The notes under the pieces were generated by a model. It did not search any database, was not told where the DNA came from, and worked only from the letters and a program-made list of their open reading frames with translations. A DNA stretch of 20,000 nucleotides, taken from Craspedostauros australis. Its lineage: Eukaryota. A program made the position numbers and the translations under genes. Numbering within the stretch: the stretch's first letter is position 1; each line of letters starts with the position of its first letter. This document shows positions 1 through 20,000 of this stretch, one piece after another. The stretch is taken from NCBI GenBank assembly GCA_030167865.1, contig JALAGF010005628.1:59173-79172 (forward strand). The letters run 5' to 3'.

Positions 1-3000
1 TGCCTCTGCCGTCACAGGAGGCATCGATAGTGACGGATTGGACGACGTTGGCAGCGGTGCCGATTGAAGTCTCCACGACCAACGAAGATGGGAGGCACTC
101 ATTGCCGGAGGCCTTCACGACGACATCAGCGTTGCCGTTTCTCGATGCAGCGGAAGTCTGGAAGAATGGGTCGCTGCTGTCGCTGCTGAACGCACGAATG
201 ATGACGTCATCAGGGAGAGGTGAGAGGTTGGTGTCAACACATCCTGCGAGGTTTTCACATTTGTTGCCGGTGTAGCGGAGGATGAGTTGGTTGGCGCAGT
301 TGCTGTCGCACATGCATTCCACCTCAGTCTCTCCAAGAAGATCATCGCATGGGATGCTGGTTGCTCCTGTCAATGGGTTTGCGATGACTGCGCAGTCCAA
401 GTCCAGATCGATGGCACAAGTGACGTCAACTTGGAACTCGTACTCATCCTCATCTTGGCACATGTCACCATTCGGTGGATCGGCCTCGACCACAGTCGAC
501 ACCTTGTACACGCCAGGGATGCACACATCCAGAAGCACAACCTCCATGGCTGTGGTGGATTCGCCCGGTGACAGCTCTCTGTCTTCCACGCGGTCAAGGA
601 GGTCGCGGATCACACTGTCTGCCGTCACGTTCAACGCTGTCACGTTCATATCGTCGGTCCCCACATTGCGGAGATCGTACACGTAGGTGATGTCGAGGAA
701 GCAATCCTGGGTATCTCCGTTCACGTCGGAGCAAGCTTCGAGCTCCATGGATCCGAACTTGTCCTTGAGGTTGAGCTCGGAGGATCCGGATGGATCGAAG
801 GTGAGCACCTGGAGGGGCTGGCTTCCCGTGGAAGAANNNNNNNNNNNNNNNNNNNNNNNNNNNNNNNNNNNNNNNNNNNNNNNNNNCTGGAGGGGCTGGC
901 TTCCCGTGGAAGAAAGAGTGCAAGTGACGCTGCTTGGAAGCTGGATGTTGGGCATGGAGGATGAGACGATGAACGTCTCTCCTGCGCCGATCGGTCCGCT
1001 GGTGGTTGTGAGGGGCATCTGGTTGCTTGCATCGACACAGCTCACCACCATCTCACTGACGGTGGTGATGTCGCCTGGCTCGCTGCACACGGATGGCGGC
1101 ATGGGTTGGGTGTTGACGCTGTCGCCGCATGGTGATGGAACGAACTTGAAGCGAGTCTCGGAGATGCTGTCGCCGTCGGAGCACTGGGCAGGGGCCTCAG
1201 TGATCTCCATGCAGTCGCGACCGTTCTCGTCGGTGCATGTGATGTCGACATCGACGCGACATGCCACAGCAATGTCGAAGGTGAATGTTTCGTCATCCTG
1301 GCATGTCGGGCCGAACGGTGGGTCGGCTTCGACACGGACGTTGGTTGTGTATGTGGCGCCCATGCACACGTCCACCACATCGGGTTCGTTGATCTGTACT
1401 TGGTCTCTCACTCCGATGGTCTTGTTTTGGATCAATCCGAAGAGGCTCTCTTCAGCACCGCCGCGCTCGCGGAAGAACAGCGTGACCTCCATGGGAACTT
1501 CGCCGATGTTTCTCAAGAAGTACGAGTAGCTGATGTCGACGAGGCAGTTTCTCTCATCGCCACCGACATCACATGATTCCAGCTGCAGCATTCCGTACTT
1601 GTCCTTGAGGTAGAGATCCATGTTGCCGCTTGTGTCGATGGAGAAGTTCTGGATTTCGTCCCCTCCGCTTGTCACTTCGCAGATGGTTGCAGTTGGCAAA
1701 ACGGTCACGCCATCTCCAATGGTGATGCGATCTCCCACGACGACATTTGTTGCAGGCAGGATCGTGGTTGTGGATGAATCGAAGCAGGTGATGGTCATGG
1801 TGGTTCCTGGTTGTGGCATCGTTCCGGTGTCCTCGCAGAAGGCATCGAGGGGTGTCATTCCGTCGTTGGCAAACATGTACTGAGTGTTGAGACTGTCGTT
1901 GCATGTTCCGCCTGTGACGACGAAGGAGAGTTCGGTGATTGGCTGTCCGGTTGAGCATTGTCCGTCTGGTGATTGCAGGTCTTCGCATGGGATTCCGCCG
2001 GCTGCGTTGCAATCAATGATTGCCTGGTGTGCGCGAATGTGCATGTTCCATTTCGATGAGAATCACGCGTTTGACAGATCACGGGAATGTAAAAACAAAA
2101 GGGTCAGTCGGTTTGCTCTCCTCCAACAATTGTGCGCCTGCTGTGTTGGTGTGGTGATGCCTCTTCAATCTTGTACCATACATGCATCGAGTTGCAGGGA
2201 CGCAGTGAGAGCAAGAACTTACCTCCACAAGGCATTCACCGGGCTCGGTTGGTGTTTGCGAGGGCATCACGGATGGAAGGCTGGATGGGCGTGCGGAGGG
2301 GTTGCTCGATGGATTTTCAGAGGGAGTTGTTGATGGGGTTGGTGACGGTTGGTCGCTTGGCGTGGCACTTGGAGGAGTGCTGGGGGTGCTGGAAGGCGGT
2401 TCACTCGGAGTGACTGACGGGGTTTTCGAGGGAGTTGCCGAAGGCGTGGCCGATGGCGGCACGCTTGGTAGGCTCGAAGGATCCACTGAAGGTGTCGCCG
2501 ATGGTGTTGTTGATGGTGTTGTTGACGGTGTCGCCGATGGTGTTGTTGATGGTGTTGTTGACGGTGTTGTTGACGGTGTTGTTGACGGTGTTGTTGACGG
2601 TGTCGTTGACGGTGTCGTTGATGGTGTCGTTGATGGTGTCGTTGATGGTGTCGCCGAAGGTGTTTTTGAGGGTGTCTCCGAAGGAGTGGCCGATGGTGGC
2701 ACACTTGGATTGCTCGAAGGTTTGACTGAAGGCGTCGATGACGGCGGTTCACTCGGGGTGTCGGACGGTTTCGTTGAAGGTCTTGCCGACGGAACGGGTG
2801 ATGGCATATCCGAAGGTTTGGTAGACGGCCTTGCAGAAGGCGTCGCAGATGGCGGAACCGACGGCTCCTCGGAAACGATGACGCTCTCACCGACTTCCTC
2901 CATTAGCCTTGCGTAAAACTCTTCATCCTCGACGTCGACACCAAGGTTGTCTCCAACATCGCCACGAGGCTGCGCGACCACTGTCAGAATATCAGTTCTG

Positions 3001-3062
3001 CAACAAGACAGCACGACTGTCGTGACGAGGAAGGGAACGAGGCCCTGTGTGCGCAACCTCAT
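1..3062 (-). CDS. Large secreted Cys-rich/PST-repeat (mucin-like) protein, paralogue A; exons 3062..2223 and 2023..<1, 3' end outside window
   Basis: Exon 1 (280 codons) encodes a hydrophobic signal peptide (MRLRTQGLVPFLVTTVVLSCC...), an acidic segment and a PS(A/T)T stalk, ending ...EPGECLVE|GTAAGT. Exon 2 begins after ...CACCAG with AIIDCNAAGGIPCEDLQSPDGQCSTGQP... and is near-identical to paralogue B from position ~1991 down to 1. The ORF track misses exon 2 because it runs off the window without a stop. Confidence 0.88.
837..886. other. Assembly gap (50 N) flanked by a duplicated 28-bp overlap
   Basis: CTGGAGGGGCTGGCTTCCCGTGGAAGAA occurs at 809-836 and again at 887-914. Paralogue B has this stretch once with nothing inserted. 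Confidence 0.92.
2024..2222 (-). other. Spliceosomal intron (199 nt, phase 0) of paralogue A
   Basis: Minus strand GAG|GTAAGT donor at 2222 and CAG|GCA acceptor at 2024. Same codon position (after CLVE) as the intron in paralogue B, and splicing gives a continuous reading frame. Confidence 0.88.
2260..2865 (-). repeat. Coding tetrapeptide repeat (PS-x-T) stalk in exon 1 of paralogue A, including a 12-nt tandem array at ~2503-2650 encoding (PSTT)n
   Basis: + strand GGTG(T)(T/C)GTTGA(T/C) 12-mers in tandem; translation PSTTPSTTPSATPS... Confidence 0.9.
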
Positions 3063-18500: not shown

Positions 18501-20000
18501 TAGCACTCGGTGTGGCACTCGGAGATGCCGACGGTGTTGCGCTTGGAGATGCGGATGGTGTTGCGCTTGGGGATACCGACGGCGTGGCGCTTGGAGATGC
18601 CGAAGGTGTTGCGCTTGGAGATGCGGATGGTGAGGCGGATGGCATGCCGCTCGGCGATGCACTTGGGGATGCCGACGGCGCAGCTGATGGCGACGCGCTC
18701 GGCTGGGCACTCGGTGATGCACTTGGGGAGGCTGATGGCACAGCTGACGGTGGTGAACTTGGAGCGGGACTTGGGAAAGGAGTTCCGACCGTCACATCGA
18801 AGTTGTACACATCGTTGTCCTCGCAGATGAAGCCATTCACATCCGTCTCAGCGATCACAGAGGCTTCCGCATTGTACCGCTTCGAAATGCACAGGTCAAT
18901 CTCGGTCACATCGAAGATGCTCACGGAATCGGCTGGATTGAGCATGNNNNNNNNNNNNNNNNNNNNNNNNNNNNNNNNNNNNNNNNNNNNNNNNNNGGTC
19001 AATCTCGGTCACATCGAAGATGCTCACGGAATCGGCTGGATTGAGCATGGTGCTGCTGAGGTTGGGGAGCAGGTCGGTTGCCATGCCGTTCAACGAGGTT
19101 GACAACGTGGTGATCGTCAAGCCCGTTTCTCCCACATTGCTCACGTCGAACGTGTAGTTGGCGTTGACGAAGCAGTTGTGTGGNNNNNNNNNNNNNNNNN
19201 NNNNNNNNNNNNNNNNNNNNNNNNNNNNNNNNNNNNNNNNNNNNNNNNNNNNNNNNNNNNNNNNNNNNNNNNNNNNNNNNNNNNNNNNNNNNNNNNNNTT
19301 GGCAGCGGTGCCGATTGAAGTCTCCACGACCAACGAAGGTGGGAGGCACTCATTGCCGGAGGCCTTCACGACGACATCAGCGTTGCCGTTTCTCGATGCA
19401 GCGGAAGTCTGGAAGAATGTGTCGGTGGTGTTGCTGCTGAACGCACGGATGATGACGTCATCAGGGAGAGGTGAGAGGCTGGTGTCAACACATCCTGCAA
19501 GGTTTTCACACTTGTTGCCGGTGTAGCGGAGGATGAGTTGGTTGGCGCAGTTGCTGTCGCACATGCATTCCACCTCAGTTTCTCCAAGAAGGTCATCGCA
19601 TGGCATGCTGGTTGCTCCTGTCAATGGGTTTGCGATGACTGCGCAGTCCAAGTCCAGATCGATGGCACAGGTGACGTCAACTTGGAACTCGTACTCATCC
19701 TCATCTTGGCACATGTCACCATTCGGTGGATCGGCCTCGACCACAGTCGACACCTTGTACACGCCAGGGATGCACACATCCAGAAGCACAACCTCCATGG
19801 CTGTGGTGGATTCGCCCGGTGACAGCTCTCTGTCTTCCACGCGGTCAAGGAGGTCGCGGATCACACCATCTGCCGTCACGTTCAACACTGTGACGTTCAT
19901 ATCGTCGGTCCCCACGTTGCGGAGATCGTACACGTAGGTGATGTTGAGGAAGCAGTCTTGGGTATCTCCGTTCACGTCAGAGCAAGCTTCGAGCTCCATG
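15529..20000 (-). CDS. Large secreted Cys-rich/PST-repeat (mucin-like) protein, paralogue C; 5' part outside window
   Basis: ORFs 18896..19999 and 15529..19002 are two pieces of one frame, split only by an N-gap with duplicated flanks. Colinear with paralogue B (end of module 2, module 3, stalk, modules 4-5); stop TAA at 15529-15531. Confidence 0.9.
17205..18775 (-). repeat. Coding 24-nt/8-aa tandem repeat (PSASPSAT)n, central stalk of paralogue C (~525 aa)
   Basis: Same unit as in paralogue B. Includes five exact copies of GGTGATGCCGATGGTGTCACACTT at 17885-18004. Confidence 0.93.
18947..18996. other. Assembly gap (50 N) flanked by a duplicated 53-bp overlap, causing an artificial frameshift
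   Basis: 18894-18946 is repeated at 18997-19049. 53+50=103 extra nt is not a multiple of 3, and paralogue B is uninterrupted here. Confidence 0.92.
19184..19298. other. Assembly gap (115 N) of correct size within paralogue C
   Basis: The homologous segment in paralogue B (10399-10513) is exactly 115 nt, so the frame is preserved. Confidence 0.9.

Follow-up and report, generated by a model that had tools for sequence, protein, structure and literature searches.

A tandem cluster of DUF7467 genes, probably from a pennate diatom, encoding predicted secreted proteins with Cys-rich modules and tetrapeptide stalks

The closest described relatives of the genes reported here are the DUF7467 (PF24269) proteins of pennate diatoms. 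The locus lies in a 20,000-nt stretch of contig JALAGF010005628.1 (positions 59,173 to 79,172; this whole stretch is called the window and is numbered from 1 below), where three large paralogues, A, B and C, encode modular proteins of this family. One relative, Sro4_g003610, is placed in the Seminavis robusta family HOM02SEM000907 (PMC7335047, supplement file 3), which is listed there as expanded and tandem-enriched, with 21 Seminavis genes, the age class 'Diatom' and the automatic annotation 'external encapsulating structure'. The 11 member genes for which signatures are listed in that source have pennate signatures of 3.75-5.14, with homologues in 4-11 pennate and 0 centric reference species; the benthic signature is positive for nine of them and the raphid signature negative for all 11 (4-9 araphid versus 0-3 raphid homologues), and six family genes are consecutive, Sro332_g119220 to g119270 (PMC7335047). 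The window genes show both homology to a member of this family and a tandem arrangement, the two points on which they were compared. DUF7467 is a catalogued family, to which the window locus adds a new member; its dumbbell form is unusually clear and its predicted tetrapeptide rods are long. Two further observations are new here, namely that the arrays in A, B and C have the pattern of a known glycofibril and that the gene copies are mosaics of young and old segments.

The glycofibril in question is TLP-4. According to CryoSeek II (PMC11725842), it is a linear chain of PT/Sxx or T/SPxx units in which 3,4-dihydroxyproline carries two glycans and the neighbouring Ser or Thr a third, with a rise of 12.4 Å per unit and a fibril about 8 nm wide that is held by glycan packing. 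The TLP-4 protein was not identified by its authors, and many diatom proteins are among the candidates listed in Table S2 (PMC11725842). A third group of comparison systems comprises the adhesive trail proteins of diatoms, including CaFAP1, CaTrailin3, CaTrailin4 and Ca5609 and the GDPH/choice-of-anchor A proteins of Amphora coffeaeformis, which resemble the window proteins, as far as they are described, in being secreted and modular with alternating Pro/Thr/Ser (PTS)-rich and Cys-rich parts. That alternation is reported for CaFAP1, CaTrailin4 and Ca5609 of Craspedostauros australis, of which CaFAP1 is species-specific and Trailin4 and Ca5609 have raphid-specific C-terminal regions; these proteins are proposed to be tethers whose PTS regions are stretched by glycans (bioRxiv 10.1101/2023.03.06.531300).

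Gene models and protein layout

The three paralogues are co-oriented on the minus strand, A at 1-3062, B at 7522-12891 and C at 15529-20000, and the window holds one further gene, a plus-strand kinase gene. Gene B reads signal peptide, acidic motif, short PSxx linker, modules 1-3, a PSxx stalk of 302 amino acids (aa) and modules 4-5. The features are as follows (ORF, open reading frame):

1-3062, minus strand: gene A, 5' part only, 3' end beyond the window
2901-2930, minus strand: conserved post-leader motif of A, EDEEFYARLM
7522-12891, minus strand: gene B, complete, 1744 aa (ORF and splice model)
12805-12891, minus strand: B signal peptide, residues 1-29, with basic n-region, hydrophobic core and AAA before Glu30
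12736-12765, minus strand: conserved acidic motif of B, EEDEVFWSRM, shortly after the signal peptide
12565-12696, minus strand: B N-terminal linker, residues 66-109, an in-register run of 11 P[ST]xx units
11650-12558, minus strand: B module 1, residues 112-369, split by the intron; DUF7467 42.2 bits; 12 Cys
10885-11649, minus strand: B module 2, residues 370-624; DUF7467 44.4 bits, CARDB E 0.038; 12 Cys
10099-10884, minus strand: B module 3, residues 625-886, variant type; DUF7467 26.6 bits, just below the cut-off; 14 Cys
9193-10098, minus strand: B central stalk, 302 aa; 54+20 in-register P[ST]xx units, mostly PSAT or PSAS
8287-9192, minus strand: B module 4, residues 1189-1490, strongest DUF7467 match (82.9 bits); 9 Cys
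7525-8286, minus strand: B module 5, residues 1491-1744; DUF7467 32.0 bits; 8 Cys
15529-20000, minus strand: gene C, 3' part, 5' end beyond the right window end; stop codon 15529-15531
17200-18780, minus strand: C stalk, 527 aa; 95+31+3 PSxx units
16294-17199, minus strand: C module 4
15532-16293, minus strand: C module 5

Gene A starts with an ATG at 3062 and has exon 1 at 2223-3062, a 199-nt intron at 2024-2222 (GTAAGT...CAG) and exon 2 at 1-2023, which continues past the left window end; the visible part encodes a signal peptide, then the EDEEFYARLM motif and a PSxx linker of 52 units (2241-2864), and after these modules 1 and 2 in full and module 3 for the most part. From its ATG at 12891, gene B comprises exon 1 (12547-12891), a single 135-nt intron (12412-12546, GTGAGT...CAG) and exon 2 (7522-12411, with the stop codon 7522-7524 included), the two exons together giving 1744 aa. 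The end of module 2, a gapped module 3, the 527-aa stalk and modules 4 and 5 are visible in gene C. B ends ...CRDRAILVVSVA and C ends ...CRDRAILTISIA. A first-pass annotation of the window had described three co-oriented paralogues, a spliced B protein of 1744 aa with this order of segments, and no C-terminal transmembrane helix or glycosylphosphatidylinositol (GPI) tail; all of this was recovered, the five modules of B matching one Pfam model and the C-termini of B and C reading as quoted there. Its statement that A and C match B held for the modules and their order and needs correction elsewhere: the N-terminal linker has 52 tetrapeptide units in A versus 11 in B, the leaders of A and B are unrelated, and the stalk has 527 aa in C versus 302 aa in B.

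The introns of A and B, both with canonical GT..AG borders, lie at the same codon. In each gene the donor stands directly after the codons for C-L-V-E and the acceptor directly before those for A-[LI]-I-[ED]-C, the intron holds in-frame stops, and the splice recreates the nine-residue module start C-x7-C. The same start is found in four internal modules of B (CRVDVDITC, CAIDLDLDC, CEIELVVEC and CALEAEITC), and homologues that read straight through the splice point carry it as CLVDVELEC (P0116) and CLVEVELAC (P0128). The splice region aside, the upstream exons of A and B are hardly related, with 44% identity over 109 aligned residues. An alternative start at a Met in the frame of the B intron (MPTSHV...) was rejected, because it has no counterpart in gene A and because the splice restores the conserved C-x7-C. 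On these grounds of sequence, we predict that both introns are removed by splicing.

Four runs of N interrupt the window, all inside coding sequence. At two of them, 837-886 in gene A and 18947-18996 in module 3 of gene C, the same 9-17 residues are repeated on both flanks, and these runs are therefore scaffold joins of overlapping contig ends, where fewer nucleotides are probably present in reality. In gene C, a portion of module 3 is masked by the run at 19184-19298, and a single N at 11449 falls within module 2 of gene B.

When A and B were scanned with 19-residue Kyte-Doolittle windows, only the N-terminal signal peptides exceeded a mean of 1.6, and neither a C-terminal transmembrane helix nor a GPI-type hydrophobic tail was detected. 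The B signal peptide is presumably cleaved after AAA, following the AxA rule. Since B and C both end on a strand homologous to the one that closes every internal module (last 11 residues), they have no transmembrane or GPI-type tail. From residue 29 onwards, B contains 223 Asp and Glu versus 67 Lys and Arg; over its full length the protein contains 56 Cys and 14 N-x-S/T sequons. A post-leader motif with the consensus [ED]DEx[FY]WxRF[LM] is shared by A, B and eight homologues with N-termini, Epithemia P0027 included, which makes 10 positive sequences among 170 scanned, most of these being fragments that lack N-termini. The motif may be a sorting or propeptide signal. In most homologues it holds R-F-L, which resembles the RXL propeptide site of diatom wall proteins, and the motifs of A and B do not have this form. 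Three relatives, P0086, P0106 and P0125, carry three DUF7467 modules between an internal and a C-terminal membrane segment, which argues that these modules face the outside or the lumen and not the cytoplasm. We predict that A, B and C are secreted, unanchored, very acidic extracellular glycoproteins. The first-pass annotation had likewise seen secreted-type, unanchored, modular and Cys-rich proteins with P/S/T/A-rich spacers and diatom kinship, and the leader, the lack of an anchor and the diatom relatives agree with it. The three membrane-bound relatives also have a long N-terminal region with repeated 'LPTFKDQVRD' motifs in front of the first membrane segment and a short basic tail behind the second.

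Modules, tetrapeptide arrays and relatives

Each module of B consists of a DUF7467 beta-sandwich, with the Pfam match spanning about residues 30-150 of the module, and then a probable CARDB-like Ig domain. B exon 2 reaches 199.4 bits against DUF7467 over five stretches, at a Pfam gathering cut-off of 27 bits, and so belongs to the family. The AlphaFold2 model of module 1, built on a 26-sequence alignment, has a mean predicted local distance difference test score (pLDDT) of 93.1 and a predicted TM-score (pTM) of 0.82 and contains two beta-sandwiches, at about residues 1-153 and 156-254. VIA-align matched this model to the C-terminal barrel of transglutaminase 3 (Z 10.0), to ApaG (Z 9.7) and to the CARDB structure 3idu (Z 8.3), the matches covering about 91-107 residues, roughly one domain, with reported ranges that span the whole model. 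The Ig-like fold matches appear to belong to the second sandwich, which gives a weak Pfam CARDB match in module 2. The CARDB match itself has 14.7 bits, below the 22.7-bit cut-off, and 3idu at Z 8.3 is one of many Ig-like folds at Z 8-10. The best Foldseek rows for the same model were transglutaminases (E 3e-4, TM-score ~0.23 normalised to the model). Among the relatives, CARDB exceeds its Pfam cut-off in P0004 and P0024, and DUF7507 in P0004, P0156 and P0159; in the cluster atlas the best score for module 1 was 0.76, which is a lead only, and the nearest clusters are of the bacterial CARDB/DUF7507/DUF11-like kind. As modelled, the second half of each module seems similar to bacterial CARDB/DUF7507/DUF11 Ig-like surface domains (Z 8.3 to 3idu), whereas the window domain differs in being always preceded by DUF7467, in being stapled by conserved Cys and in a CARDB match below the cut-off.

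The DUF7467 sandwich was also modelled alone (pLDDT 88.8). C2 domains filled most of the top VIA-align rows for this model, with a best Z of 6.0 (3jzy, 97 residues, rmsd 3.3), and Pfam C2 did not match any module of the window; a sequence-profile search of the PDB returned a single row at chance level (E 0.25).

The cysteines follow module type. Cys columns are conserved at 0.8-1.0 among homologous modules (137 of m2 type, 52 of m3 type, 41 of m4 type and 13 of m5 type), and the number of Cys per module is 12 for m2 (74 of 137), 14-16 for m3, 9 for m4 (31 of 41) and 8 for m5 (13 of 13). With nine Cys in 31 of 41 m4-type modules, the odd number is a conserved trait, and therefore one cysteine has no partner within the module. 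Judged from this count, the ninth Cys of module 4 may make intermolecular disulfide bridges. Animal gel-forming mucins offer a parallel, having a central P/S/T/A domain of the O-glycosylation type flanked by Cys-rich globular parts, and the odd conserved Cys could allow disulfide multimers as in those proteins. The window proteins differ from mucins in that they have no Pfam match (E<=1) to vWD, CysD, TIL or cystine-knot domains, and in their strict four-residue repeat and globular parts made of beta-sandwich pairs.

All regions first seen as 'PST'-rich are strict in-register P-[ST]-x-x tetrapeptide arrays, with 52 to 129 units per gene. The unbroken runs comprise 52 units in the A linker, 11 in the B linker, 54+20 in the B stalk and 95+31+3 in the C stalk; when the B stalk was shuffled 2000 times with its composition preserved, no run exceeded 6 units, against the 54 observed. 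The underlying DNA is tandemly repeated with periods of 12-108 (24 in the B stalk), and since these repeats are only 63-93% alike, the peptide register is kept while the DNA drifts. The array pattern in A, B and C is the pattern of the TLP-4 glycofibril, as the arrays fit both of the permitted forms, P-S-x-x and, with the register shifted, S/T-P-x-x. They differ from TLP-4 as published in that the modelled core there is the repeat alone, whereas the arrays here are flanked by folded DUF7467 arms. By analogy with TLP-4, at 12.4 Å per unit, the B stalk (74 units) would form a rod of ~92 nm, the C stalk (129 units) one of ~160 nm and the A linker (52 units) one of ~64 nm.

An exhaustive HMMER search with modules 1-3 found at least 499 clusters (50% identity) at E<=0.001, of which 317 reached E<=1e-10 and 99 E<=1e-30; identity to the query was at most 45% among the 150 best listed cluster representatives. 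Word-indexed homologue searches gave only 3, 4 and 5 matches and are insensitive for this family. An organism was named for seven of the 30 clusters looked up, and all seven are pennate diatoms: Seminavis robusta (two clusters), Epithemia clementina (two), Cylindrotheca fusiformis, Thalassiothrix antarctica and Phaeodactylum tricornutum. Epithemia and Cylindrotheca are raphid; T. antarctica, identified via taxid 1049557, is araphid. The two E. clementina proteins, KAL7567993.1 and KAL7568000.1, are encoded on one contig under the locus tags 004579 and 004586. DUF7467 is present in 33 of 34 long relatives, which besides have only CARDB, DUF7507, Ig-like, PT-repeat and a few low-complexity matches; no enzyme or classical adhesion domain was detected in the 34.

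In P0004, P0006, P0160 and P0001 the segments again follow each other as (m1/m2)n, m3, tetrapeptide array, m4 and m5, and in the Seminavis protein P0017 and in P0019, P0003 and P0028 they do so with a plain linker in place of the array. The pennate DUF7467 proteins share with the window proteins the module and its conserved Cys, the module order, the leader followed by an EDExFWxRF motif (seen in Epithemia P0027) and the arrangement in tandem arrays. P0017 is Sro4_g003610 (CAB9496386.1), which matches modules 1-3 at E 8.9e-84 with 31% identity and differs by a plain 57-aa linker where B has its 302-aa and C its 527-aa stalk; its database name, 'Hemolysin-type calcium-binding repeat', was not reproduced, since Pfam at E<=1e-4 gives DUF7467 only. 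B7GEN2 (PHATRDRAFT_50604), the relative from Phaeodactylum, is 554 aa long and has a single module, which is accompanied by a signal peptide, an additional Ig domain and a tail rich in PT. The literature search returned no paper that names DUF7467 or PF24269 or the gene or protein identifiers of the Seminavis and Phaeodactylum relatives, and no tested function for any family member. In 12 of 16 supplementary files on Phaeodactylum proximity proteomics, the only match to '50604' is a number inside a data cell, and the surface proteins described in a paper on Thalassiosira oceanica under low iron are other ones. The earlier suggestion that the proteins may be uncharacterised is thus right as regards function and needs correction as regards the family, the module being Pfam DUF7467 of the expanded, tandem-enriched diatom family listed in PMC7335047.

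Mosaic history of the three copies

Over modules 1-3, the DNA of the three genes is 96-97% identical. Synonymous divergence (dS) is 0.06-0.11 in modules 1-3, 0.14 in module 4 (B versus C) and 1.6 in module 5, and the ratio of nonsynonymous to synonymous divergence (dN/dS) between copies is 0.14-0.34 throughout, with 0.14 in module 5. The B and C proteins share 94% of their residues in module 4 and 68.5% in module 5. The change is abrupt: B/C identity drops from 96% to 58-77% at the border between modules 4 and 5, at about 8257-8286, which is probably where a gene-conversion tract ends, and the 3' flanks are unrelated. When 15 m5-type modules were placed in a tree, those of B and C came out as sisters, with 68.5% amino acid identity to one another versus 24-31% to the others.

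The copies are mosaics that combine homogenised modules 1-4 with an old module 5. This is most simply read as an old duplication in this lineage, followed by repeated gene conversion over modules 1-4 that spared the leader exon and module 5; on the same simplest reading, stalk length was free to vary among the copies while modules 1-4 were being converted.

Candidate role and alternatives

We consider the cluster, which comprises at least three DUF7467 genes of a probably pennate diatom, to be best explained as encoding an extracellular tether of the cell coat or mucilage whose rod is sheathed in glycans, and we give this explanation a probability of roughly 0.6. It joins features computed in this analysis (gene structure, domain content, family membership, absence of an anchor signal, tetrapeptide periodicity, purifying selection and mosaic history) to others that we infer (glycosylation, rod structure, extracellular location, tethering and multimerisation). 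The protein would be a dumbbell in which three rigid modules form the N-terminal arm and two the C-terminal arm, each module being a disulfide-stapled DUF7467 beta-sandwich with a CARDB-like Ig domain, and the P-S-x-x array joins the arms. Hydroxylated and O-glycosylated, the array would become a stiff glycan-sheathed rod of the TLP-4 glycofibril kind, ~92 nm long in B and ~160 nm long in C. With such a rod the protein could serve as a tether or spacer of fixed length within the coat or mucilage of the cell ('external encapsulating structure'), each arm binding a different partner. The paralogues would be differentiated by module 5 (binding specificity), by stalk length (reach) and by their leaders, and the conserved ninth Cys of module 4 might yield disulfide-linked multimers.

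Several observations weigh against this explanation. A contig of the public run X1, the kind of which is unclear, crosses the B intron unspliced at 12028-12711, and no joint was reported; X1 is the only public run found to contain the locus (0.88 of sampled words), its seven contigs falling over 6237-6851, 7037-8143, 11111-12994, 15060-16375 and 17962-18015 and leaving the rest of the window uncovered, and no RNA run is listed as containing it. The arrays here (302 and 527 aa; 17% of B) are shorter than the TLP-4 representatives, which exceed 600 aa and 50% of the protein according to the Fig. 3 legend of PMC11725842, and none of the named DUF7467 relatives appears in Table S2 of that paper. 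Structure comparison gave the DUF7467 sandwich no convincing solved relative (nothing at E<=0.001 in Foldseek, no chain at Z>=8 in VIA-align), and for this reason no ligand can be inferred for the domain. As listed in PMC7335047, HOM02SEM000907 has 0 conditions with enriched up-regulation, which indicates no physiological context. B7GEN2 has 11 unique peptides and 31% coverage in an isobaric-tag (iTRAQ) table of whole-cell extracts and is absent, also as 50604, from the culture-medium secretome tables of the same source (PMC8977783); at least one DUF7467 family member is therefore made as a protein and is seemingly retained by the cell, which fits a cell-bound and not a released protein. Finally, the literature search found no glycosylation, hydroxyproline or localisation data for any DUF7467 family member.

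Other explanations have to be weighed against an extracellular tether. The first-pass annotation had pointed to adhesive trails, and proteins of the trail or raphe mucilage, acting in gliding and substratum adhesion of raphid diatoms, would indeed share the secreted, PTS-rich, modular and Cys-rich architecture of the window proteins, just as the positive benthic signature of 9 of the 11 listed Seminavis genes would suit them (PMC7335047). The differences, in a comparison with trail proteins by description only, are the absence of the string 'GDPH' from A, B and C (a string test only), the absence of a match to choice-of-anchor A (PF20597) at E<=1 in B exon 2, A exon 1 and single modules, the presence of a relative in the araphid T. 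antarctica, and the negative raphid signature of all 11 listed Seminavis genes, with 4-9 araphid versus 0-3 raphid homologues (PMC7335047). A role specific to raphe trails is unlikely, since araphid species have more of the family than raphid ones and trail-protein domains are absent from it; the pointer to trails proved weak. Adhesion or cross-linking by the A, B and C proteins, which the annotation had also proposed, is plausible; its observation of the cluster is confirmed and its overall interpretation partly supported. A place in the organic matrix of the silica frustule, where the proteins would shape or coat biosilica as a new class of wall protein beside frustulins, pleuralins and cingulins, also seems improbable. 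The very acidic, Cys-rich character of the proteins would agree with such a place, whereas a rod of 90-160 nm suits a coat or mucilage more than a matrix inside silica. Lysine-rich KxxK clusters are the silica-targeting motif of silaffin- and cingulin-type proteins, and B has 0 KxxK motifs and 18 Lys in 1744 aa. Frustulins are defined by the ACR domain and pleuralins by the PSCD domain, and a Pfam scan of B exon 2, A exon 1 and single modules gave no family apart from DUF7467 above the cut-off. The automatic annotation 'external encapsulating structure' of the Seminavis family (PMC7335047) and the cell association of the Phaeodactylum relative, which is not in the medium tables (PMC8977783), are in favour of a biosilica role; the accessible text of a silica-proteome preprint has no mention of such a Cys-rich family.

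Agglutinins for cell-cell recognition and gametangial pairing in pennate sexual reproduction, with a fast-diverging module 5 giving specificity, would make good use of a projecting stalk for the display of recognition domains. Pairing of vegetative-like cells is a pennate trait, and the paralogues differ most in the terminal module, with 68.5% amino acid identity versus 94% for module 4. The 0 centric homologues in the Seminavis signature table (PMC7335047) point the same way. Module 5 is under purifying and not diversifying selection, however (dN/dS 0.14), the Seminavis family is without enriched up-regulation in any listed condition (PMC7335047), and its gene identifiers are absent from nine supplementary files of the sex-pheromone transcriptome paper (PMC8027222), so that we regard recognition in pairing as quite improbable. 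An artefact or a dead cluster (haplotigs, mis-scaffolded copies of one gene or pseudogenes) is very unlikely. Such an origin might be suspected from the four N runs, two of them with duplicated flanks, from the 96-97% identity of the copies over modules 1-3 and from the one public contig that runs unspliced over the B intron. The copies nevertheless differ in the leader exon, the linker (52 versus 11 units), the stalk (302 versus 527 aa), module 5 (dS 1.6) and the 3' flanks, a protein-kinase gene sits between A and B, ORFs are intact over 1744 aa with dN/dS of 0.14-0.34, and family members stand in tandem in Seminavis too (Sro332_g119220 to g119270), while two Epithemia relatives share one contig. 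A, B and C are real paralogues under purifying selection and not haplotigs or pseudogenes.

The extracellular coat or mucilage tether that we prefer can be taken one step further, to the tentative and rather doubtful proposal that genes for DUF7467 proteins encode the cores of TLP-4-type glycofibrils, with dihydroxyproline-glycan rods whose length is set genetically and with DUF7467 arms as handles. Through these handles each rod would be plugged into the coat of the pennate cell at one end and into mucilage, the substratum or a partner cell at the other. Ligand specificity would come from module 5, and rods would be linked into networks by the odd Cys of module 4. If true, an environmental class of glycofibrils would gain a defined and tractable protein family, and a pennate-specific domain its first function. 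Pennate diatoms dominate marine and freshwater biofilms, and their coat and mucilage proteins are mostly uncharted. Should the proposal hold, the paralogues would be natural length variants of a molecular spacer, the arms would be handles for purifying and imaging glycofibrils, and genetically tractable models would be at hand in Phaeodactylum PHATRDRAFT_50604 and the 21 Seminavis genes. Should it fail, the locus would still be a good example of a tandem cluster of surface-protein genes in which conversion has homogenised most modules and spared the terminal one.

The rest of the window adds minor features. Rfam (0 families) and ARAGORN (0 tRNAs) gave no RNA genes in the window, and eight intergenic ORFs matched no Pfam family. 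Two long plus-strand ORFs, 9233-10372 (379 aa) and 17174-19102 (642 aa), were rejected as genes, their 'DADGVALG'-type repeats being the antisense mirror of the PSxx-coding repeats. The 2-kb spacer upstream of gene B contains the microsatellites (CT)n at 13114-13154 and (CTGT)n at 13908-13968. Between A and B, at 4531-6600 on the plus strand, lies a casein-kinase-I-like protein kinase gene with a 689-aa ORF from its first Met (Pfam Pkinase, E 2.6e-13); one of its nearest atlas clusters is 'Casein kinase I', commonest in Bacillariophyta. It forms a divergent pair with gene A and a convergent one with gene B, and its product has a long non-kinase C-terminal extension.

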